Source: an uncultured Spirochaetales bacterium
GTDB lineage: Bacteria > Spirochaetota > Spirochaetia > SPDA01 > CAZSGZ01
Reading direction: 5' to 3'
Assembly (NCBI GenBank): GCA_964440465.1
Contig: CAYTSI010000005.1
Location: 151-64,150, forward strand
DNA length: 64,000 nucleotides
Under the pieces are notes generated by a model, which was not told where the DNA came from, ran no database searches, and saw only the letters and a list, made by a program, of their open reading frames with translations. Position numbers and translations under genes: made by a program. Shown here piece by piece: positions 782 through 29,299 of this stretch. Every line of letters starts with the position of its first letter. Within the stretch, counting starts at the first letter, position 1.

Positions 782-860
782 AACTATCAATATATGTTAA
801 CAAAATACCATCGTTATGTTAAAATTATAACGTAAAACCAAGAAAAAGAAAAGGGAAGGG

Positions 861-1508
861 ATGAAAATTATGAATAATATTGATTTACGGACCTATATCT
901 ACTTAGATTCACTGCAGCCGCAGATGGCATCGTATATATCCACCATTTCCCGGGGATATTTTCCGGTGGCAGGTCAGGCGTGTATGGTCGTGGAGATCTC
1001 GCCGGGTATCGAGATCAACCGGCTGACGGACATCGCTTTAAAAGCGACGAACGTACGGCCTGGAATACAAATCGTCGAGCGGCTGTTCGGGCTCTTAGAG
1101 CTCCATTCCGACAGTCAGGCCGACGCGCGGCAGTCGGGGGAGTCGATCCTGAAAGAGCTCGACTTAACCGAAGCGGACAGGATGAAGCCGACGGTACTGA
1201 CCAGTCAGCTGATAAAAAACGTGGACGACCATCACGCTCAGCTTATCAATAAAGTGCGCTACGGCAACATGATCCTCCGGGGGGACACCCTCTATGTACT
1301 GGAGCTGCAGCCGGCGGGATATGCCTATTACGCCGCGAACGAGGCGGAAAAGGCCTCGCATATAAATATTATCAACGTGCAGGGCTACGGCAGTTACGGC
1401 CGTATTTATATAGCGGGACCGGAAGCGGAAGTTCTGGTCAGCCAGCAGATTGTTGAATCCCGCCTTTTGTCGTTAAGCGGCAGGGAAGCGGGCGGTAAAA
1501 AAGAATAA
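861..1508 (+). CDS. BMC shell protein, tandem-domain (BMC-T class)
   Basis: The 215-aa product has two BMC-like halves (ACMVVEISPGIEINRLTDIALKATNV... and TLYVLELQPAGYAYYAANEAEKASHINII...). It is the first gene of the shell operon. The start may be 861 or 870, because the RBS AGGGAAGGG abuts 861. Confidence 0.75.
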   Translation: MKIMNNIDLRTYIYLDSLQPQMASYISTISRGYFPVAGQACMVVEISPGIEINRLTDIALKATNVRPGIQIVERLFGLLELHSDSQADARQSGESILKELDLTEADRMKPTVLTSQLIKNVDDHHAQLINKVRYGNMILRGDTLYVLELQPAGYAYYAANEAEKASHINIINVQGYGSYGRIYIAGPEAEVLVSQQIVESRLLSLSGREAGGKKE

Positions 1509-1534
1509 CTAAAAGAATAACTAAAAGAATAACT
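1499..1534. repeat. Perfect tandem repeat, 12 bp x 3 (AAAAGAATAACT)
   Basis: Read directly from the sequence. The first unit contains the TAA stop of the BMC-T gene (1506-1508). The array fills the spacer before the BMC-H RBS. Confidence 0.95.
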
Positions 1535-1547
1535 AGAGGAGAAAAAA

Positions 1548-1856
1548 ATGGCAGAGGTATTTGAAAACGCATTGGGAATGATCGAAACAAAGAGCTTCGC
1601 CGCGATGGTTGAAGCATCGGACGCCATGGTCAAGGCGGCAAGGGTTGAACTGACGAACTGGGTCAACACAGGCGGCGGTTATGTAACATCCATCGTCCGG
1701 GGCGATGTCGCAGCGGTACGGGCGGCCTTAGACGCGGGCGGCCGGGCGGCTGAAAAAGTCGGTGAACTGATCAGCGTTCATATTATTCCCCGTCCCCATG
1801 ACAATGTGGACAGCGCGCTTCCGTTGGGACGGACACCGCAGGGCGGAAAGAAATAG
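1548..1856 (+). CDS. BMC shell protein, hexamer type (BMC-H, PduA/EutM-like)
   Basis: The 102-aa product reads ALGMIETKSFAAMVEASDAMVKAARVEL...GGGYVTSIVRGDVAAVRAALDAG...SVHIIPRPH, which is the canonical single BMC (PF00936-like) domain pattern. Confidence 0.9.
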   Translation: MAEVFENALGMIETKSFAAMVEASDAMVKAARVELTNWVNTGGGYVTSIVRGDVAAVRAALDAGGRAAEKVGELISVHIIPRPHDNVDSALPLGRTPQGGKK

Positions 1857-1860
1857 GTAG

Positions 1861-2160
1861 ATGGTACTCGCGAAAGTAGTCGGAACGGTTGTAGCTACCC
1901 GAAAAGAGCCGAAGATCGAAGGGATAAAATTCCTGCTGATAGAAAAACTGGACCCGGCAACCATGAAGGGAAAAAAAGACTTTCTCGTGGCCATGGACAG
2001 TGTCGGCGCCGGTCCCGGAGAGGTTGTCTTTTACGTGTCCGGAAGTTCGTCGAGAATGACCGCGACGACGGAGGGCAAACCGAGCGACGCGACCATAACG
2101 GCGATCGTGGACGTAATCGAAATGGACGGGAAGACCGTTTATCACAAGGACAGGCCTTAA
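1861..2160 (+). CDS. BMC vertex protein (BMC-P, EutN/CcmL family), paralog 1
   Basis: The 99-aa product starts [28 protein letters not shown]...[11 protein letters not shown], the typical EutN/CcmL N-terminal signature. Confidence 0.9.
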
Positions 2161-2163
2161 GCG

Positions 2164-2451
2164 ATGATTTTTGCACAAACTGTGGGAACGGTGGTGAGCA
2201 CCGCCCGAAGCGATGAGATAGAAGGGGCGAAATTCCTTTTAGTGCGGGAATGCAGCTACAAAGGAGAACTTTCTGACAATTACATGATCGCCCTCGACGC
2301 GGTGCAGACCGGCCCGGGAGAGATGGTCCTCATTGCCCAAGGCAGTTCCTGCCGTCAGACGGAAAACACCTTCCAGAAGCCGGTGGATGCCCTGATTGTG
2401 GGAATCGTCGATTCCATAGACGAGGGAGGGGACCTTGTCTTTAGAAAGTAA
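2164..2451 (+). CDS. BMC vertex protein (BMC-P), paralog 2
   Basis: The 95-aa product reads MIFAQTVGTVVSTARSDEIEGAKFLLV...DAVQTGPGEMVLI. Confidence 0.9.
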   Translation: MIFAQTVGTVVSTARSDEIEGAKFLLVRECSYKGELSDNYMIALDAVQTGPGEMVLIAQGSSCRQTENTFQKPVDALIVGIVDSIDEGGDLVFRK

Positions 2452-3790
2452 GACCGCTGTCCGTCTCGCGGAGGCGGTCCGGGAGGCGGGTATCGTCGGC
2501 GCCGGCGGCGCCGGCTTCCCCACCCATAAAAAGCTCGGCGGGACCTGCCGCACGGTAATTGCCAACGGAGCCGAGTGTGAACCCCTTCTGCAGAGCGACA
2601 AATACATTATGGAAACGGAGGCGGAGAAAATCGCCGCCGCCCTCGAGCTTGCGGTGAATGAACTGCGGGCGGAAGAGGGGATTATCGCGGTAAAGGAGAA
2701 GAACAGCCGGGCTGTGGAGCGGCTCGAAGCAGCGGCGGCATCAAGGGTTGCTCTGTCCCTCTATCACCTTGAAAACTTCTATCCAGCGGGGGACGAGCAT
2801 GTGTTAGTCCATGAGATAACCGGAAAGGTAGTGCCCGAGGGGGGTATCCCGATTGCCGTGGGTGTTGTTGTCCTGAATGTGGAAACGCTGTTGAACATCT
2901 GCAACGCGGTATATGAATCGGCCCCGGTCACCCTGCGCACCGTTACCTGTACGGGAGAGGTGAAGACGCCGAAGGTGCTGCGGGTTCCGGTCGGTACGGC
3001 CATGCGGGACGTAATTCATGAGTGCGGGGGTGCTCTGGTGGAAGAACCCGCTATAATCATCGGCGGACCGATGATGGGAAAGGTCACCACCGATGTAGAT
3101 ACGCCGGTTGATAAACTGACCGGCGGAATTATCGTTTTGCCGAGGGACCACGATTGCATTCAACGGAAAACACGGCCGTTAGAAGTGCAGGTGCGGCTCT
3201 CGCGGAGCGCCTGCTGTCAGTGCGTACTGTGCAGCGAGCTCTGTCCCCGGGAGATGCTCGGGCATAATCTGTATCCGCACTTAATTATGCGGCAGATCAA
3301 TTACGGTCTTGATTTGCCGGAAGAAGCGCTGGCAGCGGCGGCGCTCTGCTGTGAATGCGGAGTGTGCGAGGTGTTCGCGTGTCCTATGGGGCTTTCCCCC
3401 TCCTTTATCAACGGAATTATCAAACAGCGGTTTGCCGAGGGGGGGTACAAGCCGGAGTTCCCCGACAGGGAGCCTAAGCCGCATGAGATGCGGGAATACC
3501 GCAAGGTGCCGGCACAGCGGATAATAGGCCGTTTGCGGCTTAACCGCTACGACGAGCCGATGTATGACCGGGGAGGCGCCGTTACACCGGAACGGGTTGA
3601 ATTGCCGCTGCGGCAGCACATCGGGGCGCCGGCGGTGCCGGTGGTTTCCCCCGGGGCAGCGGTGAAACGGGGAGACTTAATCGGGGAAATTCCCGAAGGG
3701 AGCTTAGGGGCACGGGTGCACGCCTCGGTTACGGGGACCGTTACACTGGTGGAGGAAAGCCGGATACTTATTACGGCATCAGGGGCATAA
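2435..3790 (+). CDS. PduS/RnfC-like NAD(H)-binding iron-sulfur flavoprotein
   Basis: The 451-aa product has a GAGGAGFPTHKKL nucleotide/flavin-binding motif. It carries two ferredoxin-type clusters (CCQCVLCSELCP and CCECGVCEVFACP) and an RnfC-type barrel-like C-terminal segment. The track start is a TTG overlapping the upstream gene by 17 nt, so the exact start is uncertain. Confidence 0.8.
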   Translation: MSLESKTAVRLAEAVREAGIVGAGGAGFPTHKKLGGTCRTVIANGAECEPLLQSDKYIMETEAEKIAAALELAVNELRAEEGIIAVKEKNSRAVERLEAAAASRVALSLYHLENFYPAGDEHVLVHEITGKVVPEGGIPIAVGVVVLNVETLLNICNAVYESAPVTLRTVTCTGEVKTPKVLRVPVGTAMRDVIHECGGALVEEPAIIIGGPMMGKVTTDVDTPVDKLTGGIIVLPRDHDCIQRKTRPLEVQVRLSRSACCQCVLCSELCPREMLGHNLYPHLIMRQINYGLDLPEEALAAAALCCECGVCEVFACPMGLSPSFINGIIKQRFAEGGYKPEFPDREPKPHEMREYRKVPAQRIIGRLRLNRYDEPMYDRGGAVTPERVELPLRQHIGAPAVPVVSPGAAVKRGDLIGEIPEGSLGARVHASVTGTVTLVEESRILITASGA

Positions 3791-3793
3791 CAT

Positions 3794-4345
3794 ATGGAAT
3801 ACAGCGTAATCGGAGTACTTGAATTTTCGGCAACGGCGGCGGGCATTCTGGCCTTAGACAGCATGGTGAAGGCCGCGCCGGTGAAAATTATCGACGCGAA
3901 AACGATTTGTCCCGGCAAGTTCTATATTATCGTTACCGGAGACGTTGCCTCGGTTGATGCCGCGCTGACGGCGGGCAAAAAAGCGGGCGAGGGGTACTTG
4001 ATCGACGAGCTCTTTATTACCAACCTGCAGGAGCAGGTAATTCCGGCCATTTTAGGAACGGTGGAAACGACGAAGTGGGAATCTTTAGGCGTTATCGAAT
4101 CGTTTTCCATTGTGTCGAGTATCGTCGCGGGGGATTTGGCGGCGAAAGCGGCGGCGGTGGAGCTGCCTGAAATCAGGCTTGCTACGGGAATGGCGGGTAA
4201 ATCGTATGTAAAGATGATCGGGACGGTGCATGAGGTGGAGGTCTCCATGAAGGCGGCGAAAGAGTATGTGGGAAAGCAGGGCCTGTTATGTAAGGACGTT
4301 ATTATTCCCCACGCGCACCCGGAAATGAAGCCGTTTATTTTATAG
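3794..4345 (+). CDS. BMC shell protein, tandem-domain PduT-like (BMC-T) with candidate pore cysteine
   Basis: The 183-aa product has two BMC domains (VIGVLEFSATAAGILALDSMVKAA... and SLGVIESFSIVSSIVAGDLAAKAA...). Its length and the Cys in TICPGKF resemble PduT, whose trimer pore binds a [4Fe-4S] cluster. Confidence 0.75.
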   Translation: MEYSVIGVLEFSATAAGILALDSMVKAAPVKIIDAKTICPGKFYIIVTGDVASVDAALTAGKKAGEGYLIDELFITNLQEQVIPAILGTVETTKWESLGVIESFSIVSSIVAGDLAAKAAAVELPEIRLATGMAGKSYVKMIGTVHEVEVSMKAAKEYVGKQGLLCKDVIIPHAHPEMKPFIL

Positions 4346-4369
4346 GCACGGCGGAGGTAGGATACAGAT

Positions 4370-5815
4370 ATGCAGATAGATGAAAAAACGATACGGACGG
4401 TTGTCGAAGAGGTGTTAAAAGAGGTGAGCGCGGCGGCGGTGTCGTCCGCCTCGCCGCCCCGGACCCCTTCCCCGGCAGCCTCCTCTACATATCAGGGCTC
4501 ATTCAGTACCATGGACGCAGCCGTGCGCGCGGCGCATCAGGCGCATCTGGATTTAATGAACACGACGCTGGAAATACGGAGAAAAATGATCGATGCCATG
4601 CGGGAGACCATATGGTCCAATCTTTTTGTCCTGTCAAAAAAAGCGGTGGAGGAGACCGGCTTCGGCCGCACCGACGACAAGGTGAAGAAAAACCTTCTCG
4701 CGGCGAAGATGACACCCGGTGTGGAGGATTTAACGCCGACATCGTATACGGATGACCACGGACTTACCCTGACCGAACTCGCACCCTACGGCGTTATCGG
4801 GGCGATTGCTCCGAGTACGAACCCGACGGAGACGATTATCAGCAATGCCATTGGAATGGTAGCAGGCGGAAACACGGCGGTGTTTGGTCCCCACCCGGCC
4901 GCGAAGGAAGTTTCGAAATATACCATCTGCTTGTTAAACACGGCCATTCAGAAAGCCGGCGGACCGGCAAATGTTCTTACAACGGTGGACGAACCGACCA
5001 TCGAGGCCGCCCAGACGATGATGGACCATCCTCTCGTTTCGCTCTTAGTCGTGACCGGCGGCCCGGGAGTAGTAAAAGAGGCGATGAAACGGGCGAAAAA
5101 GGTCATTGCCGCGGGACCGGGGAACCCGCCGGTGGTGGTGGATGAAACCGCGGACATCGTGAAGGCCGGGAAAGATATCGTCGCGGGCGCGGGTTTGGAC
5201 AACAACATCATCTGTATTGACGAGAAAGAAGTCCTGGCGGTGGACTCTATTGCCGATCAGCTGAAGGCGGAAATGAAGAAAAACGGCGCCTTTGAACTGG
5301 ACCGGCAGCAGGCGGAGGCCCTGACGAAAATCGTCATTTCCGATCCCGGACGGCCGGGGCATGAAGGAATGGCGAATAAAAAATACGTGGGAAAAAACGC
5401 GTCCGTATTGGCGGACCTCATCGGCCTGAAGGTCCCCGAAGATACGCGCATCCTCATTGCCGAAGTCGACCGCGACCATCCGATGGTATGGACGGAACAG
5501 CTGATGCCCTTTATTCCGCTGGTGCGGATGAAGAGCGCCGATGAGGCGATCGATTTTGCCGTAGAATGCGAACACGGGTTTCGGCACACGGCAAGCATGC
5601 ATTCGAAAAACATCGAGCGGCTCTCAAGGATGGCGAAAGTCATGAACTGTTCCCTCTTTGTAAAAAACGGTTCGAATTTTAACGGCATGGCCTTCGGCGG
5701 CGCGGGCTACACCTCCTTTACCATTGCCAGTCCCACCGGCGACGGCTTTACCCGGGCGAGGACCTTTACCCGGGAACGGCGGTGTTCGCTCATTGATTAT
5801 TTTCGGATTGTGTAG
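4370..5815 (+). CDS. CoA-acylating aldehyde dehydrogenase (PduP/EutE-like) with N-terminal extension
   Basis: The 481-aa product belongs to the aldehyde dehydrogenase superfamily. It has the catalytic-Cys context GAGLDNNIICIDEKEV typical of EutE/PduP. An N-terminal amphipathic helix (KTIRTVVEEVLKEV) is followed by an Ala/Ser/Pro linker. Confidence 0.9.
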   Translation: MQIDEKTIRTVVEEVLKEVSAAAVSSASPPRTPSPAASSTYQGSFSTMDAAVRAAHQAHLDLMNTTLEIRRKMIDAMRETIWSNLFVLSKKAVEETGFGRTDDKVKKNLLAAKMTPGVEDLTPTSYTDDHGLTLTELAPYGVIGAIAPSTNPTETIISNAIGMVAGGNTAVFGPHPAAKEVSKYTICLLNTAIQKAGGPANVLTTVDEPTIEAAQTMMDHPLVSLLVVTGGPGVVKEAMKRAKKVIAAGPGNPPVVVDETADIVKAGKDIVAGAGLDNNIICIDEKEVLAVDSIADQLKAEMKKNGAFELDRQQAEALTKIVISDPGRPGHEGMANKKYVGKNASVLADLIGLKVPEDTRILIAEVDRDHPMVWTEQLMPFIPLVRMKSADEAIDFAVECEHGFRHTASMHSKNIERLSRMAKVMNCSLFVKNGSNFNGMAFGGAGYTSFTIASPTGDGFTRARTFTRERRCSLIDYFRIV

Positions 5816-5840
5816 GTTAAGGAAAATAGGAAGTGATGGA

Positions 5841-6113
5841 ATGAAATTAGGGAAAGTAATCGGAACGGTGGTGAGTACACAAAAGGTGGAGTCCTTCGAG
5901 GGGGTAAAGCTTCTTTTAGTACAGCCGTTAGATGAAAATTACGACGAGAAAGGCGGACCCTTAGCGGCGTGTGATACCGTTCAGGCGGGAGTTGGAGACA
6001 TTGTCCTTTATGAAGGCGGCCGGGAAGCCGCCCTGACGCTGGAAAACTGGTACAATCCGTCGGACGCGGCGGTAATGGCTATTGTCGACAGTACAAACCT
6101 GGAGGCAACCTAA
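5841..6113 (+). CDS. BMC vertex protein (BMC-P), paralog 3
   Basis: The product reads MKLGKVIGTVVSTQKVESFEGVKLLLVQP...DTVQAGVGDIVL. I trimmed the track ORF (5724) to the ATG at 5841, which is preceded by AGGAAG. The longer N-terminus overlaps the aldehyde dehydrogenase and looks non-coding. Confidence 0.85.
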   Translation: MKLGKVIGTVVSTQKVESFEGVKLLLVQPLDENYDEKGGPLAACDTVQAGVGDIVLYEGGREAALTLENWYNPSDAAVMAIVDSTNLEAT

Positions 6114-6388
6114 TGCTTGTGGCTAAAGTAATCGGAACGGTTGTCGCCACGCGGAAGCATCCCGTTTTACAGGGGTATAAGCTGTTAATTGTGCAGCCGA
6201 AGGGGCCTGACGGAACGGATGCCGGCGGGATCGAGATTGCCCTCGATACGGTACAGGCAGGGACCGGCGAAACGGTGCTGCTGTTGACGGAGGGCAACTC
6301 TTCGAGGATGATTATCGGCGACGACATGGCCCCGGTACGTGCGGTGGTGGTCGGCATTATCGATGAGGTACAGTACGATGCAGTATAA
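6113..6388 (+). CDS. BMC vertex protein (BMC-P), paralog 4
   Basis: The 91-aa product reads [29 protein letters not shown]...DTVQAGTGETVLL. Confidence 0.9.
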   Translation: MLVAKVIGTVVATRKHPVLQGYKLLIVQPKGPDGTDAGGIEIALDTVQAGTGETVLLLTEGNSSRMIIGDDMAPVRAVVVGIIDEVQYDAV

Positions 6389-6929
6389 AAGTGATTCATC
6401 CATTGTACAAAATATCGTTTCCACGCTTCACACGGCCGCGGACCGGCCGCTTCCGGTGGAGAATACCGCGAACCAGGAAGACAAGGTCCTTCGGGTTGCC
6501 CTCGGGGCGGACCACGGCGGCTTCGAGGCGAAGGAGGCCCTGCGGGAGTATCTGAAGTCCTTAGGTTACCGTGTTACCGACGTCGGGACCGACAGTACCG
6601 AAAGCGTCGACTATCCCGATTTCGCGGTAAAGGTGGCGAAAAAAGTGGCCTCCGGGGAATGCGAGCGGGGAATTATGATCGACGGCGCGGGAATCGGATC
6701 GACGATGGTATGCAACAAGGTGCGGGGCATCCGCGCGGCGCTGTGCTACGATGTGAAAACAATCAGCAACAGCAGGGTGCACAATAACGCGAACGTGCTG
6801 TGCTTAGGCGGCCCCCTGCACGGCAGAGAGGAAATTTTTGAAATGGCAAAGCTGTGGCTAACCACGCGATTCGAGGGCGGCAGACACTGGCCGCGGATTA
6901 ATAAAATGATGGCAGTTGAACGAGGATAA
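6378..6929 (+). CDS. rpiB: Ribose-5-phosphate isomerase B / sugar-phosphate isomerase (RpiB/LacAB family) with N-terminal extension
   Basis: The core reads RVALGADHGGFEAKEALREYLKSLGY...GIMIDGAGIGSTMVCNKVRGIRAALC...NANVLCLGG. The start was trimmed to ATG 6378 (in frame with the track ORF at 6339). About 35 aa (SSIVQNIVSTLHTAA plus a linker) precede the catalytic core. Confidence 0.85.
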   Translation: MQYKSDSSIVQNIVSTLHTAADRPLPVENTANQEDKVLRVALGADHGGFEAKEALREYLKSLGYRVTDVGTDSTESVDYPDFAVKVAKKVASGECERGIMIDGAGIGSTMVCNKVRGIRAALCYDVKTISNSRVHNNANVLCLGGPLHGREEIFEMAKLWLTTRFEGGRHWPRINKMMAVERG

Positions 6930-6941
6930 GAGGATAGACAG

Positions 6942-7820
6942 ATGGAGCAGAAAGATTTAGTAGAAAAATTGACGAAAGAGGTTATCGCGCGGCTTACGCA
7001 GGAAGGCAGCGGCGTTACAGGCGGCGCGCCTGCAGGCGGCAGCAGGACAACGGCCTCCGGCGGCGTCGGCGGCAATATGGGCGGCGGCCGGTCATCGGGC
7101 GCCGTACAGGAAGGCGGCTCGGCTCAGGCGGCCGGTTCCGGGGAGCTCCGTCCCTCCGACCTCAATAAATATATCGACCACACTCTGCTCAAACCGGAGG
7201 CGACGAAAGAGCAGATCGACAAGCTCTGCGATGAGGCGAAGGAATACTCTTTTTATTCGGTATGCGTCAACTCGAGCTGGGTGGAATACTGCGCGAAAAA
7301 ACTCCGCGGAAGCGGAGTCAAAATCAGTGCCGTAGTGGGGTTCCCCTTAGGCGCCATGGAAGGCCGTGCGAAGGGTTATGAAACAAGACACGTCGTCGAG
7401 GCGGGTGCCGATGAAATAGATATGGTGATGAACGTGGGCGCCCTGAAATCGGGAGACACGAAAAAGGTTGAAGAAGACATCCGCTGGGTCCGCCGGTCCA
7501 CCCGGCAGAAGACGGTTGTAAAAGTAATTATCGAAGCGGCCCTGCTGACCGATGACGAGAAGGTGCTCGCCTGTCAGATTTCGAAAAACGCCGGCGCCGA
7601 TTTCGTAAAAACGTCCACCGGGTTTGCAAAAGGCGGCGCCACCGCCGAAGATGTCGCCCTGATGCGGCGCACCGTCGGTCCGAAGACGGGCGTTAAAGCT
7701 GCCGGGGGGATCCGCTCCTTCGAAGATGCTGTGAAGATGATCAATGCCGGCGCGACTCGCTTAGGCACCAGTTCCAGCGTAGAGATTGTTACGGGGCAAA
7801 AGAGCACGTCGGCGTACTAA
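6942..7820 (+). CDS. deoC: Deoxyribose-phosphate aldolase (DERA) with ~68-aa N-terminal extension
   Basis: The core reads LNKYIDHTLLKPEAT...YSVCVN...VVGFPLG...DMVMNVG...VKVIIEAALL...ADFVKTSTGF...GVKAAGGIR, the class I aldolase DeoC pattern. The N-terminus is an amphipathic helix (DLVEKLTKEVIARL) followed by a long Gly/Ser/Ala linker. Confidence 0.9.
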   Translation: MEQKDLVEKLTKEVIARLTQEGSGVTGGAPAGGSRTTASGGVGGNMGGGRSSGAVQEGGSAQAAGSGELRPSDLNKYIDHTLLKPEATKEQIDKLCDEAKEYSFYSVCVNSSWVEYCAKKLRGSGVKISAVVGFPLGAMEGRAKGYETRHVVEAGADEIDMVMNVGALKSGDTKKVEEDIRWVRRSTRQKTVVKVIIEAALLTDDEKVLACQISKNAGADFVKTSTGFAKGGATAEDVALMRRTVGPKTGVKAAGGIRSFEDAVKMINAGATRLGTSSSVEIVTGQKSTSAY

Positions 7821-7907: not shown

Positions 7908-8276
7908 ATGGGGACGTTTCATATCAGCTGTAAAGTAGAAAACCATATTGACCGCGGGAAAAATACTACAGTTAAAAACCTATTAGTAGACACCGGAAGC
8001 GGATTTACCTGGCTCCCCGCCTCGGAACTGGAGAACATCGATGTTGCCCGTGAGAAAAAAGATCTGCCTTTTATTATGGCAAACGGTCAAAGGATTACCA
8101 GGGACGCCGGCTTCGCGATCATCCGTGTAGAAGACCATTTCACCATTGATGAGGTTGTATTCGCGGAGGAAGGGGACTTGCTGCTGTTAGGCGCCCGCAC
8201 TTTAGAAGGACTGAACCTCCGGGTCGATTCGGTCCGGAAGAAACTCGTGGCCGCCGGACCGCTCCCGGCCGCGTAG
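7908..8276 (+). CDS. Retropepsin-like (clan AA) aspartic protease domain protein
   Basis: The 122-aa product has the motif LLVDTGSGFTWLP (a D-T-G-S catalytic-type motif) and a C-terminal LLLLGARTLEGL segment typical of bacterial retropepsin-like proteins. Confidence 0.6.
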   Translation: MGTFHISCKVENHIDRGKNTTVKNLLVDTGSGFTWLPASELENIDVAREKKDLPFIMANGQRITRDAGFAIIRVEDHFTIDEVVFAEEGDLLLLGARTLEGLNLRVDSVRKKLVAAGPLPAA

Positions 8277-8533: not shown

Positions 8534-9682
8534 ATGAATAGAGAACGAAAAAAAAGGCGGACACTAAAAAAGAGCGGGCCGATGATGTCCCGCCTGTACG
8601 GAGACACCGGCGTTAACGTTTCCGCGTTAGGTTTCGGCGGGATGCGGTTTGAGAAACCGGACGATATCGAGCATTCCGCCGAGACGGTGTTCCACGCCTT
8701 CGAGCGGGGGATTACCTATTTCGATACGGCGCCGGGGTATTTCGACGGTAAGTCGGAGGAGGCCGTCGGTACGGCGGTAAACGAGATGAAGAAAACCGGC
8801 AGGCCTTTTTATATATCCACGAAATCAAACAAGGCGGACGGTGCCGTGGTCCGGAAAGAGCTGGAAGAAAGCCTGAAGCGGCTGAATCTCGACTGTATCG
8901 ATTTTTATAACTGCTGGTACGTACTGACATTAGAGGATTGGGAAAAACGGAAAAACGGCGGGGCAGTGGAAGCAATTCTAAAGGCGCGGGACGAGGGGCT
9001 TGTCCGCTTTCCGGTATTTTCCACCCACCTTCCGGGAGACGCGGTACGTACGGTCATTGAAGAGGGATATTTCCGCGGCGTTACCCTCGGCTATTCGGCC
9101 ATCAATTTTCCCTACCGGGAAGAGGGGATACGGGCAGCCGGAGAGAACAATCTCGGTGTTGTCGTTATGAACCCCTTAGGGGGAGGAACAATTGTAAACA
9201 ATGCCGATGCCTTTCAATTTATCAAACGGGACAGCAAACAGACCGTTTTAGAGGCGGCCCTTCATTTTCTCTGGGCCCACGATGAAATTACGGTCGCGTT
9301 AGTAGGATGCAGGAACAAGTCCGATGTGGACGATGCCGCTGCCGCCGCGGCATCGTACGTACCCTATTCGGACGAAGATATCTCTAAAATAAAGAAGAAC
9401 ATTACCCGGGACTTCAACCAGCTGTGTACAAGCTGTACCTACTGTGATGTTTGTCCCGAAGACATCCCTGTCTGGAAGTTTGTGGAAACTGCAAACCATG
9501 TTATTTTAGGCTCTTCCGCGTCACTGTCCGGACGACTGAAATACTACTGGGGGGCTGATCCGACGGCCATGGAGCGGTGTATCCGGTGCGGGCAGTGTGA
9601 AAGTGCCTGCACCCAGCATATACCGATTATGGAACGGTTTGAGATGCTGAAAACAGCATTGACGGAGGAACCTACAAAGTAA
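8534..9682 (+). CDS. Aldo/keto reductase with C-terminal 4Fe-4S ferredoxin-like tail
   Basis: The AKR barrel motifs are LGFGGMRF, ITYFDTAPGY and GVVVMNPLGGG. The C-terminal cysteine clusters are CTSCTYCDVCP and CIRCGQCESAC. An alternative start exists at 8582. Confidence 0.8.
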   Translation: MNRERKKRRTLKKSGPMMSRLYGDTGVNVSALGFGGMRFEKPDDIEHSAETVFHAFERGITYFDTAPGYFDGKSEEAVGTAVNEMKKTGRPFYISTKSNKADGAVVRKELEESLKRLNLDCIDFYNCWYVLTLEDWEKRKNGGAVEAILKARDEGLVRFPVFSTHLPGDAVRTVIEEGYFRGVTLGYSAINFPYREEGIRAAGENNLGVVVMNPLGGGTIVNNADAFQFIKRDSKQTVLEAALHFLWAHDEITVALVGCRNKSDVDDAAAAAASYVPYSDEDISKIKKNITRDFNQLCTSCTYCDVCPEDIPVWKFVETANHVILGSSASLSGRLKYYWGADPTAMERCIRCGQCESACTQHIPIMERFEMLKTALTEEPTK

Positions 9683-15836: not shown

Positions 15837-16343
15837 TCAGCGTAACTTCATCCAAACCCGCCGCAGGAAATCATTAGGCGGCCGCTCTAATATGTCCAGC
15901 TGTCCCTTATAGATCAAACTCATGCCGCTGTATTTATAGTCTGTCGCGTATTGGACCATTTTGGCGCGAACTGGGTTATTGGCTATATAAACAAATGTGG
16001 CAAGATATTGCAGGAAACTGTGAATTATTTTGCTTTTAAACCGCTCGTTCCATACATGGCCGGTTAGCCCAAATGTTTTATTATACTGCATCGCGAAAAC
16101 GCTTAAAACCCATTGCATAATGGCCGATAAGCTCTCATTATTCAGCGGTTTTATGATGAAATGGTAATGGTTTCCCATTATACAGAAGTTTTTGATAGTG
16201 AAGCGGTATTTTTTTTTTGCCCTTCTGATGACTTCCATAAACATTTCTTGTATTTCCGGTGTTTTGAATATTACTTCTTTGCGGTTCACTCTGGAAACTA
16301 CGTGATAACTTGCCCCATACTGTAATTGCCTTGGTTTTCTCAT
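15837..16343 (-). CDS. IS200/IS605-type Y1 (HUH) transposase-like protein, RAYT-like
   Basis: The 168-aa product has an HUH motif (GNHYHFII) and a C-terminal tyrosine region (YIANNPVRAKMV...YKYSG). The gene stands alone, with no tnpB nearby, and local GC content is lower than in the neighbouring genes. Confidence 0.8.
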   Translation of the reverse strand: MRKPRQLQYGASYHVVSRVNRKEVIFKTPEIQEMFMEVIRRAKKKYRFTIKNFCIMGNHYHFIIKPLNNESLSAIMQWVLSVFAMQYNKTFGLTGHVWNERFKSKIIHSFLQYLATFVYIANNPVRAKMVQYATDYKYSGMSLIYKGQLDILERPPNDFLRRVWMKLR

Positions 16344-16464: not shown

Positions 16465-17661
16465 TTAGCTTTTTAACCGCTTGAGAAGTTCCCGGGCGAC
16501 AGCTGTCTCAACTTTATCCTCTGTCCCTAGCCCGCATACAGTACGGACCATGTGTTCATGTCCGTTTGCGGCCAGTTCTTCAGCGAACTGCTTGTCCCCT
16601 GGGAAAAGAATGCCGTTTTCGTCGGATCCGCGGAATGCAAACCCGGCGGCGGCTGCCTCGGCAATTGCGCTATAGGGAAGCCCGTGGGTTTCGGCTAAAA
16701 GCATTGCTCCGACCAGCCTATCGTCTTTGGCAAGTTTCCGTTGAAGGTCCCGGCCGACCCGGAAAATGGTATCACCCAATGCTTTATTTCGGAACCTGTT
16801 TAGAAGGTCGCCAATGTGTTCTCGGAGCGCGTCCAGAGAGAGATCGGCCGGGTACGCGGCGTGAAGGGCTTCTCCTGACTGTTCCATTGCTTTTTGTACT
16901 TTATCCTTAATTTCCGGAAGCTCAAGGGGTTCCCAGATGTAGGTAAACCCGGGTTCCTTACGATATCCGATATACGCCGCCGCCGCGTGACCCATATTAT
17001 GAATGAACAGTTTCCTGTCTACGTAGGCGGTTATATTTTCCACTGCTTTTATCTCGGGGAAATCCGGCACTTCTCGGACAAATCCGTGTTTATCAAGGAT
17101 AAGCGTATTGTATTCTTCCGAGAATACCCACAGTGGATCTTCGTTTTTGTCTTCCTCCCGCATAATCGGTACCATTTTCCCAATACTCGTTTCAACCAGG
17201 CCCACTGTTTTCTGAATGGGGAAGCCGGGAGGTAGATATTTCTGCAGTTCCCTTCTAAAAAAAGCAGCTCCGTCCCTCATATTTTCAGCAATAATGATGT
17301 CGATTTTTGCCGCTTCCGTCCGCATTTTTATCCCTTCGGCAATAACGGGGATTATATGCGGTAAGACCCCCTTCCCAACAGACGTGGCAATGTACGCCGC
17401 TTTGGAAATTTCTTCCGCTACTGCAGCTCTGTCCCTGCCGTCGACGGCTCGGACACCGGTAACGAAGACCTCTTCATCTTCCTGATTGTTCCGTTTAATA
17501 ATGACACGATAGGAGTTCCTGCTGTTCAACTCCCGTATCAGCGTTTCATCAATATCGACAAAGACAACCTCATAACCGTTGCCTGCAAACACCTTCCCGA
17601 TAAATGATCTGCCGATATTTCCGGCACCGAACTGCACTAGTTTTTTCTGTTTTTCCTGCAT
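16465..17661 (-). CDS. mtlD: Mannitol-1-phosphate 5-dehydrogenase family protein
   Basis: The product is collinear with E. coli MtlD as I recall it. Shared segments include FGAGNIGRSFIGK, IIIAENM, VDRKLFIHNMGHAAAAYIG and RFRN...RVGRDLQRKL..DDRL. Confidence 0.75.
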   Translation of the reverse strand: MQEKQKKLVQFGAGNIGRSFIGKVFAGNGYEVVFVDIDETLIRELNSRNSYRVIIKRNNQEDEEVFVTGVRAVDGRDRAAVAEEISKAAYIATSVGKGVLPHIIPVIAEGIKMRTEAAKIDIIIAENMRDGAAFFRRELQKYLPPGFPIQKTVGLVETSIGKMVPIMREEDKNEDPLWVFSEEYNTLILDKHGFVREVPDFPEIKAVENITAYVDRKLFIHNMGHAAAAYIGYRKEPGFTYIWEPLELPEIKDKVQKAMEQSGEALHAAYPADLSLDALREHIGDLLNRFRNKALGDTIFRVGRDLQRKLAKDDRLVGAMLLAETHGLPYSAIAEAAAAGFAFRGSDENGILFPGDKQFAEELAANGHEHMVRTVCGLGTEDKVETAVARELLKRLKS

Positions 17662-23192: not shown

Positions 23193-23561
23193 ATGCCGTT
23201 TAGTATTTTGGAAAAAGACAGGAAGACATTTGAATATTTTAAAAAATACGTTGAGTTTTTAGAGCTCGAGGAAAACACCTGTCTCATCCTTGACAACAAG
23301 ATACAATCCGAGGAAATCCAGGAGCATTTGCGCCGGACCGGTCATAACAGCGGAATGGATGGAAGGAAAAAAGAGATTATTTCACAGTGGATTAAAGAAA
23401 ATGCCCGTCCGTTCCGGGATTATCTGAACAGCATCAAACTTGCCTATGTCGTATGGAAATGCATGGGCAAAGAATGGTCCGAGATAACCTGGGAAGAGTT
23501 CTTCAAAATCGAAGAGCGCCTCAATTCCCTCAAGTACAAATGTCTCGATACGATTTTTTAA
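23193..23561 (+). CDS. Hypothetical protein
   Basis: This is a 122-aa ORF with a plausible RBS (AGAGGAAAA). No family was recognised. Confidence 0.4.
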   Translation: MPFSILEKDRKTFEYFKKYVEFLELEENTCLILDNKIQSEEIQEHLRRTGHNSGMDGRKKEIISQWIKENARPFRDYLNSIKLAYVVWKCMGKEWSEITWEEFFKIEERLNSLKYKCLDTIF

Positions 23562-25399
23562 GAAAACATCATGCTGTTCACGTAATCGTCCATAAACTCC
23601 GGCGAAGATGACAATTCAATATATTCGGTCTGTTCACTCAGTGCCCCGCATTCCTGTAATTTTTCCCGGGACAGCAGCGCCATAATCGCGCCGGAGCCGG
23701 CTGCATTGCCGATAACTTCAATCTTGTTTTCCAGTTCTTTGGGAATAAGGCCGATATGTATTGCGTGATGTTTATCGATATAGCTGCCGAATCCGCCCGC
23801 GAGGAACACCCGTTCGATATCATGAACGCTCTTACCGGCGGTTTTCATGAGGGTGGTTATTCCCGCTGCAATTGAAGCTTTCGCGTTTTGCACCTCCCGT
23901 ATGTCCTTCTGGGTAAGAAGAATTGCATCGCCGTGGGACGTATCTTCAGCCTTTACCAAGGTGTAGGCGGTCTGTTTGTCGAGTTTGGTCAGGTTTTCCG
24001 CTAAATGCTTTCCGGTTTCGTTTTCTATATCATCGGCATCAACCATCCTGCCGGTTTCATCGATAATACCGGCATAGAGCAGGTTGGAAATGGCATCCAC
24101 AATTCCGGAACCGCAAATGCCTAAAGGTTTTTTATCGGCAATGGTAGTACAGGATATCGATGAATCGTGAAGGGCGACCGTATCGATTGCTCCGGCTATT
24201 CCTCCGACTCCGTCCCTGATGGTGGCGCCTTCAAATGCCGGTCCGGCCGCGGTGGAACAGGAAAGCAGCCGGTCCTTGTTTCCGAGCATAATTTCACCGT
24301 TTGTTCCGATGTCGATGAGGAGGCTCAAGCTTTCTTCTTTTGCCATTCCGCTGGCCAATGTAGCGGCGGTAATGTCCGCGCCGATATAGGCTGAAATCCC
24401 GGGCAGCAGATAGATCCACCCCTGTTCGGCAATGGCAATCCCCATTTCAGCCGCGGTTGTCCGCGTCATTTCCAGACTGGCGGGGATAAAGGGCGCCGCG
24501 GCGATATTTTTCGGAGGTATTCCCGCCGCGAGGTGCATCATGGTGGAGTTCCCCACGATGGTCATGCTGTAGATGCTCTTCCGGTCAATTGCATATTTGG
24601 AGACAAGCGAATCGATGAGGTCATTCAGCTGCCCGATAATGCCGTTGTGCAGTGTTTCCAAGCCCTGTTCATTCGTCATGGTGTGATTTATCCGGGCAAT
24701 AACGTCCTGTCCGTAACTTTTCTGCACGTTCAGGCCGGAGGCCACGCCGATTTTTTTCCCGGAAGTCATGTCTAAAAGATAGACGACCACGGTTGTTGTC
24801 CCGATATCCACCGCCAGGCCGTAATTGATATCTTCGGTGTTCCCCTGCTCGATGGTCAGAATCTGCGCGTCGTTGTAGACCGCGGTAGCGGAAAAACCGT
24901 TGTCCCGAAGCACCGAGGGCAGTTTTCCGATCTCATTCAGCGTAATCCTGTGGTCCGGCAGTTTGAGTTCGTCCCGAAGCCTTTTCAGGTCGTCCCGCTG
25001 GTCTTCTAAGGTCGGCTTGGAAAGGGAAACATATTTCTTTTTAATGCATGGGTTTAGATGTTCCCGAAACTCGCTGCTGTCCTCTAATATAACGATCTGT
25101 CCGGACTTGTCGTTTAAGGTAACGGTAATGTCTCCGGTTATCTGAGTAGAACAGGCAAGTCTGTATCCCCGGGCGAGTTCGGTTTCCGACAGTTTTTTCT
25201 TTTCAATTTCGGTAACGCCGGAAGCTCCGTCCCCCTCTACACGGACAAGGCATTTGCCGCAGGTCCCCCTCCCCCCGCAGGGTGTTTCGATAAACGACCT
25301 GTATTTTTCACCCACCGCTTCTAAAATCGTAGTTTCTTTTTTGCATGATACCGTTTCTGTTTCGTTTTCGGTAATAATGGTAACGTTGTATTCTGACAT
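23558..25399 (-). CDS. Corrinoid reductive activase (RACo/RamA-like): N-terminal [2Fe-2S] ferredoxin plus ASKHA ATPase domain
   Basis: The N-terminus has a plant-type ferredoxin Cys pattern (CGGRGTCGKC...C). The remaining ~500 aa carry ASKHA-type phosphate motifs (VDIGTTT, IDIGTNGE). Confidence 0.8.
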   Translation of the reverse strand: MSEYNVTIITENETETVSCKKETTILEAVGEKYRSFIETPCGGRGTCGKCLVRVEGDGASGVTEIEKKKLSETELARGYRLACSTQITGDITVTLNDKSGQIVILEDSSEFREHLNPCIKKKYVSLSKPTLEDQRDDLKRLRDELKLPDHRITLNEIGKLPSVLRDNGFSATAVYNDAQILTIEQGNTEDINYGLAVDIGTTTVVVYLLDMTSGKKIGVASGLNVQKSYGQDVIARINHTMTNEQGLETLHNGIIGQLNDLIDSLVSKYAIDRKSIYSMTIVGNSTMMHLAAGIPPKNIAAAPFIPASLEMTRTTAAEMGIAIAEQGWIYLLPGISAYIGADITAATLASGMAKEESLSLLIDIGTNGEIMLGNKDRLLSCSTAAGPAFEGATIRDGVGGIAGAIDTVALHDSSISCTTIADKKPLGICGSGIVDAISNLLYAGIIDETGRMVDADDIENETGKHLAENLTKLDKQTAYTLVKAEDTSHGDAILLTQKDIREVQNAKASIAAGITTLMKTAGKSVHDIERVFLAGGFGSYIDKHHAIHIGLIPKELENKIEVIGNAAGSGAIMALLSREKLQECGALSEQTEYIELSSSPEFMDDYVNSMMFS

Positions 25400-25444
25400 A
25401 GGACATCCTTTCTTACATATAGAATTTTTAATATATTGATTAAT

Positions 25445-25720
25445 TTACATCGATTTTATCAATTGTTCAAGTCTGTTTTCGGTAATAATTGAACCGGCAC
25501 TGACCTGTTTTCCCCGAACAAGAAGGGCGGGAAACTGATGAATTTCAACACCGGGTACCGTGCATTCTTCATCCGCCCGGAGTTTTACATGATTTATTTG
25601 TATATCGGGATGTTTGGTCTGTATCTCACGCAATACTTCACGAACAATTTGATCGCTAATTGTGCAGGAAGCGCAATGCTGGTCTTTTGAAACAAGGGTA
25701 ATGGTAACAGGTTCAGCCAT
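25445..25720 (-). CDS. Small thioredoxin-fold protein (CxxC)
   Basis: The 91-aa product has a CASC motif after the first beta-strand-like segment (ITLVSKDQHCASC) and a later FPALLV segment. Confidence 0.5.
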   Translation of the reverse strand: MAEPVTITLVSKDQHCASCTISDQIVREVLREIQTKHPDIQINHVKLRADEECTVPGVEIHQFPALLVRGKQVSAGSIITENRLEQLIKSM

Positions 25721-26651
25721 TTCCTTCTATTGTACACGCTTTAATGCTTTGCGCAAGAGATTCTTCGCTGATGCTGCCGCGGATAAGGACGATTTTGCTG
25801 CTGTTTGCTTCGAGAAGCGCGGGAACAGGGGGTTTTTCGGAATAGACGCCGTCAATAATTTCAAAGTACTTCGGACCTTCGGGAAAGCGGAGGACCCCTT
25901 TGCCACGGAGTATTTCCGGTTGTATTTTTTTAATATACGCCTCCCATTTCCCCCGGTCGAGGAGGGCTTTCAGTTCAATACTGAAAGAGAAAAAATTATC
26001 CGGCGGTGTATCGCTGCATTTTTCGGGGACATCCTTCTGCCGCGGCGCGATTTCTTCCAGTGCGTCCCGGGAAACTTCCCCGAAACGGGCGGGAAAGATG
26101 GGGGCGGATTCATTATGTTCCCGCAGAAGCTTTTCCGTTTCTTCCAACCGCTCCGGCGTTACCGTGTCGACTTTATTCAGAATAAAGGCGTCGGCGTATT
26201 CTGCCTGGATCTGTACCGCCTCTAAGGTGGCCTCGACTTTATGAAAATTCGCCGCGTCGATAACACAGAAATTCTGTTCCAGTGATATCAGCTTATCGAG
26301 CCCGTCGAGGCGCATCATGGCATACATATCATCCACCCGGGCGATCCCGGTTGCTTCGATAAGGAGAAAATCGGGCCGCGTCTTCTCCGCTATGTTTTTC
26401 AGCTCCGCGATAAAATCGGTGCGCATGCATACGCAGAAAATGCTGCCCTTGTTGAGTTCGATTTTGTAAAAATCGCCCTCCCGTACCAGGGCGCCGTCAA
26501 TCCCGATGGACCCGAACTCATTAATCATCACCGCGAGTTTTCCGCCCCGGGTACTGTACCATTCGATAAGCCGGTTAATAAGTGTCGTTTTCCCGGCGCC
26601 TAAGAACCCCGTAACCAGGACGGTTTTAATTAGAGGATAGCTTTGATCCAT
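25713..26651 (-). CDS. COG0523/CobW-family G3E GTPase (metallochaperone-like)
   Basis: The P-loop VTGFLGAGKTTLINRLI is followed by a CVCMR Cys motif, LLIEATGIA, and a CobW-type C-terminal domain. Confidence 0.85.
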   Translation of the reverse strand: MDQSYPLIKTVLVTGFLGAGKTTLINRLIEWYSTRGGKLAVMINEFGSIGIDGALVREGDFYKIELNKGSIFCVCMRTDFIAELKNIAEKTRPDFLLIEATGIARVDDMYAMMRLDGLDKLISLEQNFCVIDAANFHKVEATLEAVQIQAEYADAFILNKVDTVTPERLEETEKLLREHNESAPIFPARFGEVSRDALEEIAPRQKDVPEKCSDTPPDNFFSFSIELKALLDRGKWEAYIKKIQPEILRGKGVLRFPEGPKYFEIIDGVYSEKPPVPALLEANSSKIVLIRGSISEESLAQSIKACTIEGNG

Positions 26652-28249: not shown

Positions 28250-28388
28250 TATATTCTCCTTACATATGAATATACAAAAATTGCCGCTCTGGAGAAAGGA
28301 TGATCTTTCTAATTTTTGTAATTCCTCTTCCTCCGTCCCCTCATTTATGGTATTTTAGCTGTGGACCCGCAAAATAGAAGGAGAAGAT

Positions 28389-29285
28389 ATGGCACGAACG
28401 ACAATAACAGAGGCAATAGCGGCGCGGAAAGTACTCGTTTCCGACGGCGCGTGGGGAACAATGATGCAGATGGGGGGGCTCTCGCCGGGTGAATGCCCGG
28501 AGGCCTGGAACACGGAAAAGGCCGATACGGTATTCGAAATCGGCAAGGCGTATATCGATGCCGGGTCCGATATTATCGAGACAAACAGCTTCGGCGGAAC
28601 ATCATATAAATTGAAGTACTACGGTCTTGAAGACCGGGTCGAAATACTGAATAAACTGGCCGCGGAATTGTCCCGGAAGGCCGCCGGCGAGGACAGATGG
28701 GTAATGGGGTCCATGGGACCGACAGGGAAGCTAACGGTAATGGGGGACATAACGGAAGAGGAATATTTCACCGCCTTCACCGAGCAGGCAAAGGCCCTCG
28801 AGGCTGGCGGCGCGGACGCGCTGATGATAGAAACCCAAATGGCCCTTGATGAGGCGTTGGCAGCGGTCCGGGCCGGGAAAGAACATACCTCTCTCGAGAT
28901 TATCGCCTCGTTTACTTTTGAAGAAACCGAAAAAGGCGGTTTTAAAACGATGATGGGTGTAAGCCCCGCGCGGGCGGTTACGGCTGCCGTGGACGCCGGG
29001 GCCTCGATTATCGGCGCGAACTGCGGCAGAGGCTATGCAGGAATGGAACGGGTAATACGGGAGTTCAAGGAGGCCCGCCCGGATGTACCTGTCCTTATTC
29101 AGACAAATGCCGGAATTCCGAAGCAGGAGGACGGGGTAGATGTGTTCCCCGCGACACCGGAGGAGATGGCGGGACAGGTGCCGCTATGGATTGAAGCCGG
29201 GGCCTCGATTATCGGCGGCTGCTGCGGAACGACGGAACAGCATATTGCCGCGATCCGGAAAGCCGTCGATGAATATCTACGCTGA
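28389..29285 (+). CDS. Homocysteine S-methyltransferase domain protein (MetH N-terminal-like)
   Basis: The motifs LVSDGAWGTMMQ, DIIETNSFGG, GANCG and GGCCGT form the Zn-binding Cys triad pattern of Hcy-binding domains. Confidence 0.8.
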   Translation: MARTTITEAIAARKVLVSDGAWGTMMQMGGLSPGECPEAWNTEKADTVFEIGKAYIDAGSDIIETNSFGGTSYKLKYYGLEDRVEILNKLAAELSRKAAGEDRWVMGSMGPTGKLTVMGDITEEEYFTAFTEQAKALEAGGADALMIETQMALDEALAAVRAGKEHTSLEIIASFTFEETEKGGFKTMMGVSPARAVTAAVDAGASIIGANCGRGYAGMERVIREFKEARPDVPVLIQTNAGIPKQEDGVDVFPATPEEMAGQVPLWIEAGASIIGGCCGTTEQHIAAIRKAVDEYLR

Positions 29286-29299
29286 CAAAAGGACGGAAC

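Follow-up and report, generated by a model that had tools for sequence, protein, structure and literature searches.

Cofactor recycling in bacterial microcompartments (BMCs) has been described in a model that rests on two proteins, MNdh and BMC-T(SE) (Sutter et al., PNAS 2024, PMC11626177). In this model a flavoprotein, the metabolosome NADH dehydrogenase (MNdh), re-oxidises lumenal NADH, and the electrons exit via a [4Fe-4S] cluster in the shell. Here we describe two adjacent genes of an uncultured Spirochaetales bacterium, located in a stretch of 64,000 nucleotides (nt) of contig CAYTSI010000005.1 (assembly GCA_964440465.1), which is referred to below as the window. The two genes probably constitute the MNdh/BMC-T(SE) cofactor-recycling module of a sugar-phosphate-utilisation (SPU) microcompartment, and their products would export electrons through its shell.

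MNdh proteins are defined by four domains and by a circular permutation with respect to RnfC and NuoF; a BMC-T(SE) gene is adjacent in 97% of the 2,172 loci that contain MNdh, and the CP(G/S)K motif of the shell protein is reported as universal (PMC11626177). The MNdh/BMC-T(SE) pair is present without an alcohol dehydrogenase in 361 loci, and SPU is among the locus types that carry the pair (PMC11626177). Support for the model comes from work on the Clostridium botulinum GRM1 pair by means of NADH-oxidation assays, electron paramagnetic resonance (EPR), protein voltammetry and X-ray footprinting (PMC11626177). With respect to SPU organelles, it has been stated that MNdh can recycle NAD+ (Commun Biol 2024, PMC11585597), and Axen et al. 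2014 (PMC4207490) found it puzzling that SPU loci lacking an alcohol dehydrogenase should have a PduS homologue.

The flavoprotein and the adjoining shell protein

The two genes of the putative module are as follows.

2435-3790, + strand: putative MNdh (PduS-type metabolosome NADH dehydrogenase), 451 amino acids (aa); based on Pfam domains, RnfC structures and NCBIfam
3794-4345, + strand: putative BMC-T(SE) (PduT-type single-layer tandem shell protein), 183 aa; based on two BMC domains and alignment with PduT

The flavoprotein gene has a TTG start codon, with GGGAGGGG about 5 nt 5′ of the start, and overlaps the preceding BMC-P gene (2164-2451) by 17 nt. The translated aa sequence displays the flavin mononucleotide (FMN)/NADH motif GAGGAGFP at residues 22-29 (nt 2498-2521) and two [4Fe-4S] motifs, C260-x2-C263-x2-C266-x3-C270-P (nt 3212-3247) and C305-x2-C308-x2-C311-x4-C316-P (nt 3347-3385). 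Pfam matches are to Complex1_51K (PF01512, 7.9e-43), SLBB (PF10531, 2.1e-08), Fer4_17 (PF13534, 2.5e-13) and RnfC_N (PF13375, 6.6e-15), and these are all four of the domains by which MNdh is defined (PMC11626177). In addition, an acylating aldehyde dehydrogenase, the feature of the locus that goes with MNdh membership, is encoded in the same operon (4370-5815). The aldehyde dehydrogenase and two other enzymes of the operon, RpiB and DERA, have N-terminal extensions, whereas the flavoprotein has none.

The solved structures closest to the flavoprotein are RnfC subunits of the Rnf ferredoxin:NAD+ oxidoreductase (9eri_C, E = 1.2e-54; 7zc6_C, E = 7e-53). The glycine-rich motif and all eight cluster cysteines align with the solved RnfC chains, so that the FMN/NADH site and the dicluster domain are common to both proteins, and the NCBIfam rnfC subfamily model scores 249.5 bits against a cut-off of 245.95. 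However, the order of domains differs. Residues 3-318 of the flavoprotein align with RnfC 119-420, while residues 382-442 align with RnfC 29-88, and the RnfC barrel domain (RnfC_N), a barrel-sandwich domain that is N-terminal in RnfC, is found at residues 384-443 of the 451 in the flavoprotein, i.e., at its C-terminal end. Thus the flavoprotein is circularly permuted with respect to RnfC. It also differs from RnfC in that no other rnf genes accompany it and in that it is paired with a shell protein in place of a membrane complex.

The stop codon of the flavoprotein gene (TAA, 3788-3790) is separated from the ATG of the shell-protein gene at 3794 by three bases. A first-pass annotation of this DNA had placed the shell gene 4 nt further on; the adjacency stands, and the spacing is corrected to a gap of 3 nt, 4 nt being the distance from the final base of the stop codon to the first of the ATG. 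The other features listed there for the two proteins, i.e., the 451-aa product with GAGGAGFP and two 4Fe-4S motifs, the 183-aa tandem-BMC product and its cysteine in TICPGKF at the cluster-ligand position of PduT, are borne out by the domain and structure comparisons.

The shell protein consists of two BMC domains (PF00936, Pfam 5.2e-37) in 183 aa and is about 37% identical to PduT, a shell protein of the Pdu microcompartments of Salmonella enterica and Citrobacter freundii. PduT has 184 aa and the sequence SKTICPGKF, and the window protein has AKTICPGKF, in which Cys39-Pro-Gly-Lys is encoded by nt 3908-3919 (Cys39 codon, 3908-3910). In the alignment with PduT, Cys39 falls on the Cys of SKTICPGKF in the C. 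freundii protein (3pac), the equivalent of the cluster-ligating Cys38, and on the Ser that replaces it in the S. enterica C38S mutant (3n79). Among 39 aligned sequences (the window protein and 38 homologues), Cys39 is kept in 36. An AlphaFold2 monomer model built on the 39 aligned sequences has a mean predicted local distance difference test score (pLDDT) of 94.4. The single-layer trimers 3nwg, 3pac and 5dih match this model with template modelling (TM) scores of 0.83-0.91, the value being 0.91 for 3nwg and 0.84 for PduT (3pac). In the monomer model, Cys39 is predicted at the tip of a hairpin formed by strands 31-39 and 42-48, as in PduT. In oligomers of BMC domains the equivalent loop lines the central pore. 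Whether Cys39 is at the symmetry axis of the trimer, a point on which the first-pass annotation had made its reading depend, was thus judged indirectly, from the alignment with PduT Cys38 and from the monomer model.

A second cysteine, Cys166 (in GLLC, window positions 4289-4291), is invariant in this clade, being present in 39 of the 39 aligned BMC-T(SE) sequences. PduT (3pac, 3n79) and 3nwg have Val at this position.

The pair of the window is similar to the C. botulinum GRM1 pair in having a permuted flavoprotein of four domains, the FMN/NADH motif, two [4Fe-4S] motifs and an adjoining single-layer BMC-T with CP(G/S)K. It differs in locus type (SPU), in host lineage and in the absence of a phosphotransacylase at the locus.

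The operon and related loci

Both genes belong to a tightly packed operon of 11 genes at 861-7820 (+ strand), which is divergent from the gene of a DeoR-family regulator. The order is BMC-T(dp), BMC-H, two BMC-P, flavoprotein, shell protein, aldehyde dehydrogenase, two BMC-P, RpiB and DERA. The remaining features of the operon and its 5′ side are:

1-736, - strand, with the 3′ end (about 17 codons) past the left edge of the window: DeoR-family transcriptional regulator; Pfam HTH_DeoR and DeoRC, 8.1e-48; whole in contigs L001 and L002
737-860: region between the two divergent genes, with promoter-like sites in both directions; sigma-70-like sites, matched to the consensus only, at 752-781 and 797-825 (+ strand) and at 822-794 and 800-772 (- strand)
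861-1508, + strand: BMC-T(dp), CcmP-like double-layer tandem protein, 215 aa; CcmP 4ht5, E = 1e-71; HO-5816, 6e-66; Pfam CsoS1D_N
1548-1856, + strand: BMC-H hexamer shell protein, 102 aa; Pfam BMC, 1.9e-28
1861-2160, + strand: BMC-P pentamer protein, paralogue 1; Pfam EutN_CcmL, 1.5e-25
2164-2451, + strand: BMC-P pentamer protein, paralogue 2; Pfam EutN_CcmL, 1.9e-24
4370-5815, + strand: coenzyme A (CoA)-acylating aldehyde dehydrogenase (EutE/PduP type), 481 aa; Pfam Aldedh; NCBIfam PRK15398, 645.7 bits, cut-off 403
5841-6113, + strand: BMC-P pentamer protein, paralogue 3; Pfam EutN_CcmL, 4.9e-26
6113-6388, + strand: BMC-P pentamer protein, paralogue 4; Pfam EutN_CcmL, 1.6e-26
6378-6929, + strand: RpiB-type ribose-5-phosphate isomerase, 183 aa; Pfam LacAB_rpiB (PF02502), 1.2e-52; NCBIfam rpiB, 150 bits, cut-off 138.65; start codon taken from the gene calls in L001 and L002
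6942-7820, + strand: deoxyribose-phosphate aldolase (DERA/DeoC), 292 aa, the SPU signature enzyme; NCBIfam deoC equivalog, 282.5 bits, cut-off 117.3; Pfam DeoC (PF01791)

The operon combines a DeoC-type aldolase and RpiB with shell genes and an aldehyde dehydrogenase, and has four EutN_CcmL genes together with one PduT-type BMC-T, where SPU loci are recognised by a minimum of three BMC-P paralogues and one single-layer BMC-T (PMC11585597). Judged on gene content, the property by which the type is defined (PMC4207490, PMC8217296, PMC11585597), the locus is that of a predicted SPU microcompartment. The features it has in common with SPU2 and SPU3 loci are DERA, RpiB, the aldehyde dehydrogenase, a PduS homologue, a CcmP-like BMC-T(dp), at least three BMC-P genes and the lack of a phosphotransacylase (PMC4207490, PMC8217296, PMC11585597). 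Thus the subtype appears most like SPU2/SPU3, an assignment based on gene content and the CcmP-like BMC-T(dp); the NCBIfam CcmP model scores BMC-T(dp) at 282.9 bits, under its cut-off of 340 bits. The window locus differs from SPU2/SPU3 in its four BMC-P paralogues. In Pdu loci there are also genes for PduQ (an alcohol dehydrogenase), PduL (a phosphotransacylase) and a B12-dependent diol dehydratase; all three are absent here.

The four BMC-P paralogues are only 35-45% identical to one another and are arranged as two adjacent pairs (1861-2451 and 5841-6388), an arrangement that is kept in all close relatives. At least a triplet of BMC-P paralogues has been reported for SPU loci, without an explanation (PMC11585597).

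Three enzymes of the operon have extended N termini. The aldehyde dehydrogenase begins with a helix and a Pro/Ser-rich linker, as read from the sequence, RpiB has an N-terminal extension of about 38 aa, and in DERA a helix and a Gly-rich linker take up about 70 aa at the N terminus. In all three enzymes the helix is followed by a linker of low complexity, a combination that resembles an encapsulation peptide.

Pfam scans of the operon and of the other sizeable open reading frames (ORFs) of the window did not reveal an Fe-dependent (PF00465) or a Zn-dependent (PF08240/PF00107) alcohol dehydrogenase. The absence of an alcohol dehydrogenase from the operon, as noted in the first-pass annotation, is thus confirmed. 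The only loosely related enzymes in the window are a mannitol-dehydrogenase-family protein (16465-17661, - strand) and a fusion of an aldo/keto reductase with a dicluster ferredoxin (8534-9682, + strand). Two metagenome contigs, which come from microbial-mat and JGI samples, are 99.7-99.97% identical to the window. One of these, L001 (99.7%), reaches 3 kb upstream of the window, and the downstream side of the operon lies inside the window. A tagged alcohol dehydrogenase situated in the same operon just outside the window, a situation the annotation had considered, is not what is found: the 5′ edge is formed by the divergent DeoR gene, and the 3 kb beyond it in L001 have genes for EtfB, EtfA and an FAD-linked oxidase and no alcohol dehydrogenase. 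Likewise, neither PduL nor Pta was detected in the operon, in the other sizeable ORFs of the window or in the 3 kb upstream. The combination of an acylating aldehyde dehydrogenase with the lack of an alcohol dehydrogenase is that of the 361-locus class, which prompted the published hypothesis (PMC11626177).

A scan of genome contigs for close relatives gave two loci only, one of which (L005) is from a Spirochaetales metagenome-assembled genome (MAG), on a short contig, with a flavoprotein 74% identical to that of the window. A scan of metagenome contigs gave only satellite pairs at 43-45% identity. The close syntenic loci L011, L012 and L013 were obtained by exact-protein look-ups of homologues of the shell protein, whose identity to the window protein is 87% in L011, 70% in L012 (Spirochaetes) and 67% in L013. 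All three share the order DeoR, BMC-T(dp), BMC-H, two BMC-P, MNdh, BMC-T(SE), aldehyde dehydrogenase, two BMC-P, RpiB and DERA, with one additional BMC-H gene before BMC-T(dp) in L013. The order in L005 matches up to the aldehyde dehydrogenase gene, within which the contig ends. The DeoR gene is in the same position in L005, L011, L012, L013, L014 and L015. As far as the contigs reach, the operons of L005, L011, L012 and L013 have no alcohol dehydrogenase or phosphotransacylase gene. Thus a compact, conserved 11-gene SPU operon without these two enzymes occurs in spirochaete-affiliated MAGs and in metagenome contigs, including those of microbial mats.

The adjacency of MNdh and BMC-T(SE) is also seen in loci L005 to L013. 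In the distant loci (43-45% identity) the flavoprotein gene is directly followed by a CPGK BMC-T gene as an isolated satellite pair; one of these loci, L006, is genome-derived and comes from an Elusimicrobiales MAG. Two loci depart from the CP(G/S)K motif that is reported as universal next to MNdh. In L015 (6700-8561) the BMC-T beside an MNdh-like gene has NPGK in place of CPGK, and in the MNdh-like protein GAGGAGFP is gone, the first cluster motif keeps only one of its four Cys, and the second lacks its final Cys-Pro. The loss of the pore Cys together with the FMN motif and the greater part of the first cluster motif fits two proteins that work as a unit. In L014 (6662-8555) the BMC-T beside MNdh also has NPGK; here the MNdh motifs are intact, a 959-aa AFOR::Fe-alcohol dehydrogenase fusion is encoded directly after DERA, and a Zn-dependent alcohol dehydrogenase is encoded beside DeoR. 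The two loci hint at a joint decay or a replacement of the module, and as natural variants that have lost the pore Cys they could help to test the coupling of the two partners.

Proposed electron export and alternative roles of the pair

The role of the pair, by analogy with the published model, can be outlined as follows. An encapsulated DERA would split deoxyribose 5-phosphate into glyceraldehyde 3-phosphate and acetaldehyde, and the acylating aldehyde dehydrogenase would convert acetaldehyde, CoA and NAD+ to acetyl-CoA and NADH. MNdh, on the lumenal face of the BMC-T(SE) trimer, would oxidise the NADH at FMN. The electrons may then pass via the two [4Fe-4S] clusters of MNdh to a third [4Fe-4S] cluster at the trimer pore, held by three Cys39, and from this cluster to a cytosolic acceptor, for which a ferredoxin or a flavodoxin is a candidate. 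Lumenal NAD+ would thus be regenerated without a diversion of acetaldehyde to ethanol. Electron export in place of recycling by an alcohol dehydrogenase had been suggested in the first-pass annotation, and the suggestion gains support here, as all of the sequence-level features tested are present and are the same as those of the MNdh/BMC-T(SE) model (PMC11626177).

The mechanism is already published, and the locus is an ordinary member of the described system. As a further case of a shell that, according to the published idea, conducts electrons and separates lumenal from cytosolic redox pools, it offers nothing new in kind. Because the locus has no competing recycling route, it would be a clean natural test of whether electron export alone sustains the turnover of an aldehyde dehydrogenase.

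Several points weigh against the assignment of the pair to electron export. We infer from homology and the literature that cofactors and clusters are bound, that MNdh docks on the shell protein and that electrons flow outward; the substrate is assigned on the same basis. The experiments that support the published model were made in vitro, on a GRM1-type pair that is about 40% identical to PduS, while in vivo the Salmonella pduS and pduT knockouts have mild growth effects only (PMC11626177). The NCBIfam equivalog model eut_PduT (TIGR02526) gives the shell protein 108 bits, below its cut-off of 250.3; by that model the protein is a relative within the PduT family and not an orthologue. In the flanks of L011, L012 and L013 no conserved candidate acceptor is encoded near the locus. 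The portion of the genome covered is about 67 kb (the window and 3 kb upstream), and the rest of the genome could encode an alcohol dehydrogenase that carries an encapsulation peptide. Finally, and as the main caveat, since there is no phosphotransacylase in the locus, CoA and acetyl-CoA must cross the shell anyway, presumably via the BMC-T(dp) pore, and if molecules of the size of CoA cross, NAD(H) might too, in which case electron export would be less essential.

This last point leads to a different role for the pair, whereby NAD(H) is exchanged across the shell and MNdh/BMC-T(SE) is an auxiliary (a redox valve, a sensor or an oxygen scavenger) instead of the main recycling route. Such a role, which is not exclusive of electron export, is a live alternative, though a rather unlikely one. 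It draws on the finding that a BMC-T(dp) is typical of those SPU loci that lack a phosphotransacylase (PMC11585597), as is the case here at 861-1508, and on the view of the MNdh authors, who accept the passage of cofactors via larger pores and O2 as an electron acceptor in vitro (PMC11626177). However, the pair is intact, with all cofactor motifs and in the same operon position, in L012 and L013, where MNdh is only 51-54% identical to that of the window; conservation at this distance argues for selection on the redox function. Recycling could also be carried out by a conventional alcohol dehydrogenase that is encoded in a satellite locus and packaged into the organelle, with the pair redundant, as in Salmonella Pdu. 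Both systems are carried by 1,725 of the surveyed loci (PMC11626177), some SPU2, SPU4 and SPU6 loci contain an Fe-dependent alcohol dehydrogenase (PMC11585597), and among the relatives of the window locus there are the AFOR::Fe-alcohol dehydrogenase fusion of L014 and a Zn-dependent alcohol dehydrogenase 2 kb upstream of the L013 operon. The latter belongs to a different, non-conserved gene cluster, and no alcohol dehydrogenase is found in 16-17 kb of flanking sequence around the L011 and L012 operons, nor in the 64-kb window or the 3 kb upstream. A satellite enzyme is thus an unlikely source of NAD+ in this organelle.

Electrons might instead flow inward, from a cytosolic ferredoxin via the shell cluster to the flavoprotein, which would reduce lumenal NAD+ while the organelle works in a reductive or condensing sense, from acetyl-CoA via acetaldehyde to deoxyribose 5-phosphate. 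In Rnf complexes, modules of the RnfC type can work in both directions, and the reactions of DERA and of acylating aldehyde dehydrogenases are reversible as well. A transfer of electrons from PduT to PduS was considered by Axen et al. (PMC4207490). The published EPR and voltammetry, on the other hand, support a path from NADH via FMN and the Fe-S clusters to the shell cluster (PMC11626177), and the DeoR regulator together with the DERA/RpiB content suggests the catabolism of nucleoside-derived sugars (PMC11585597, PMC8217296), so that little probability is given to the inward direction. A further function to be considered is that of a cobalamin reductase, whereby the flavoprotein regenerates cob(I)alamin for a B12-dependent enzyme and the shell protein supplies or removes electrons. 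Salmonella PduS was initially described as a corrin reductase (cited in PMC4207490, PMC11626177), and corrinoid-related genes (RACo, CobW, CobT and a methyltransferase) are located 20-26 kb away in the window. These genes sit in separate methyltransferase clusters that are absent from the L011 and L012 flanks, the DeoC-type signature enzyme needs no cobalamin (PMC4207490), and there is little room for cobalamin in the MNdh fold (PMC11626177). Above all, the Pfam matches in the operon include no B12-dependent enzyme, adenosyltransferase, or diol or ethanolamine lyase; in an operon that lacks a B12-dependent enzyme, a role in cobalamin reduction is very unlikely.

Neighbouring genes and the rest of the window

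A stronger form of the export reading would hold that the organelle, having neither an alcohol dehydrogenase nor a phosphotransacylase, depends wholly on electron export, and that a redox protein encoded next to the operon is the dedicated cytosolic acceptor. If true, such an acceptor would be the missing piece of the published MNdh model; it is, however, most improbable for the two candidates at hand, which are the aldo/keto reductase with two [4Fe-4S] motifs (8534-9682) and EtfAB with the FAD-linked oxidase.

The second of these is upstream of the left edge of the window, beside the DeoR gene (L001 3-2739, - strand), and comprises EtfB, EtfA with an N-terminal Cys-rich ferredoxin-like segment, and an FAD_binding_4 oxidase. 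We take the arrangement, which looks like a lactate dehydrogenase/Etf cluster, to be adjacent by chance. As an acceptor it was rejected, since it is not conserved beside the locus in L005, L011, L012 and L013; the position is occupied by CorA and an AlgH-like gene in L005 and L011, and by RtcB and archease in L012. The aldo/keto reductase with its C-terminal 4Fe-4S dicluster domain (+ strand) is encoded about 700 nt 3′ of DERA, after a small retropepsin-like ORF (7908-8276, + strand), and has no N terminus resembling an encapsulation peptide. It was rejected as a conserved aldehyde reductase or acceptor, being found only in the same-organism contigs L001 and L002 and absent from the L011, L012 and L013 flanks. 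The flanks of L005, L011, L012 and L013 differ from one another, and neither the Etf genes nor the fusion is found in any of them. Thus neither neighbour is a conserved partner of the operon.

The corrinoid-dependent methyltransferase cluster of the window (23558-30349) contains genes for the activase RACo, CobW, a URO-D-like methyltransferase::thioredoxin protein, a homocysteine S-methyltransferase-family protein and CobT, and a separate MttB-family gene is found at 60230-61654. These genes are unrelated to the microcompartment operon.

The gene for NrdD, the anaerobic ribonucleotide reductase, is apparently split (43692-46351, - strand). An ORF of 708 aa corresponds to positions 1-538 of Pfam NRDD, and the next ORF, which overlaps it by 4 nt, corresponds to positions 532-562; it has the glycyl-radical motif RIVGYYR and, after this, a thioredoxin-like tail with CxxC. 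The interruption may be genuine or may stem from a frameshift in the assembly.

An IS200-type Y1 transposase gene (15837-16343, - strand) is located between a block of SbcCD-like genes and nitroreductase on one side and the mannitol-dehydrogenase/PfkB kinase pair on the other.

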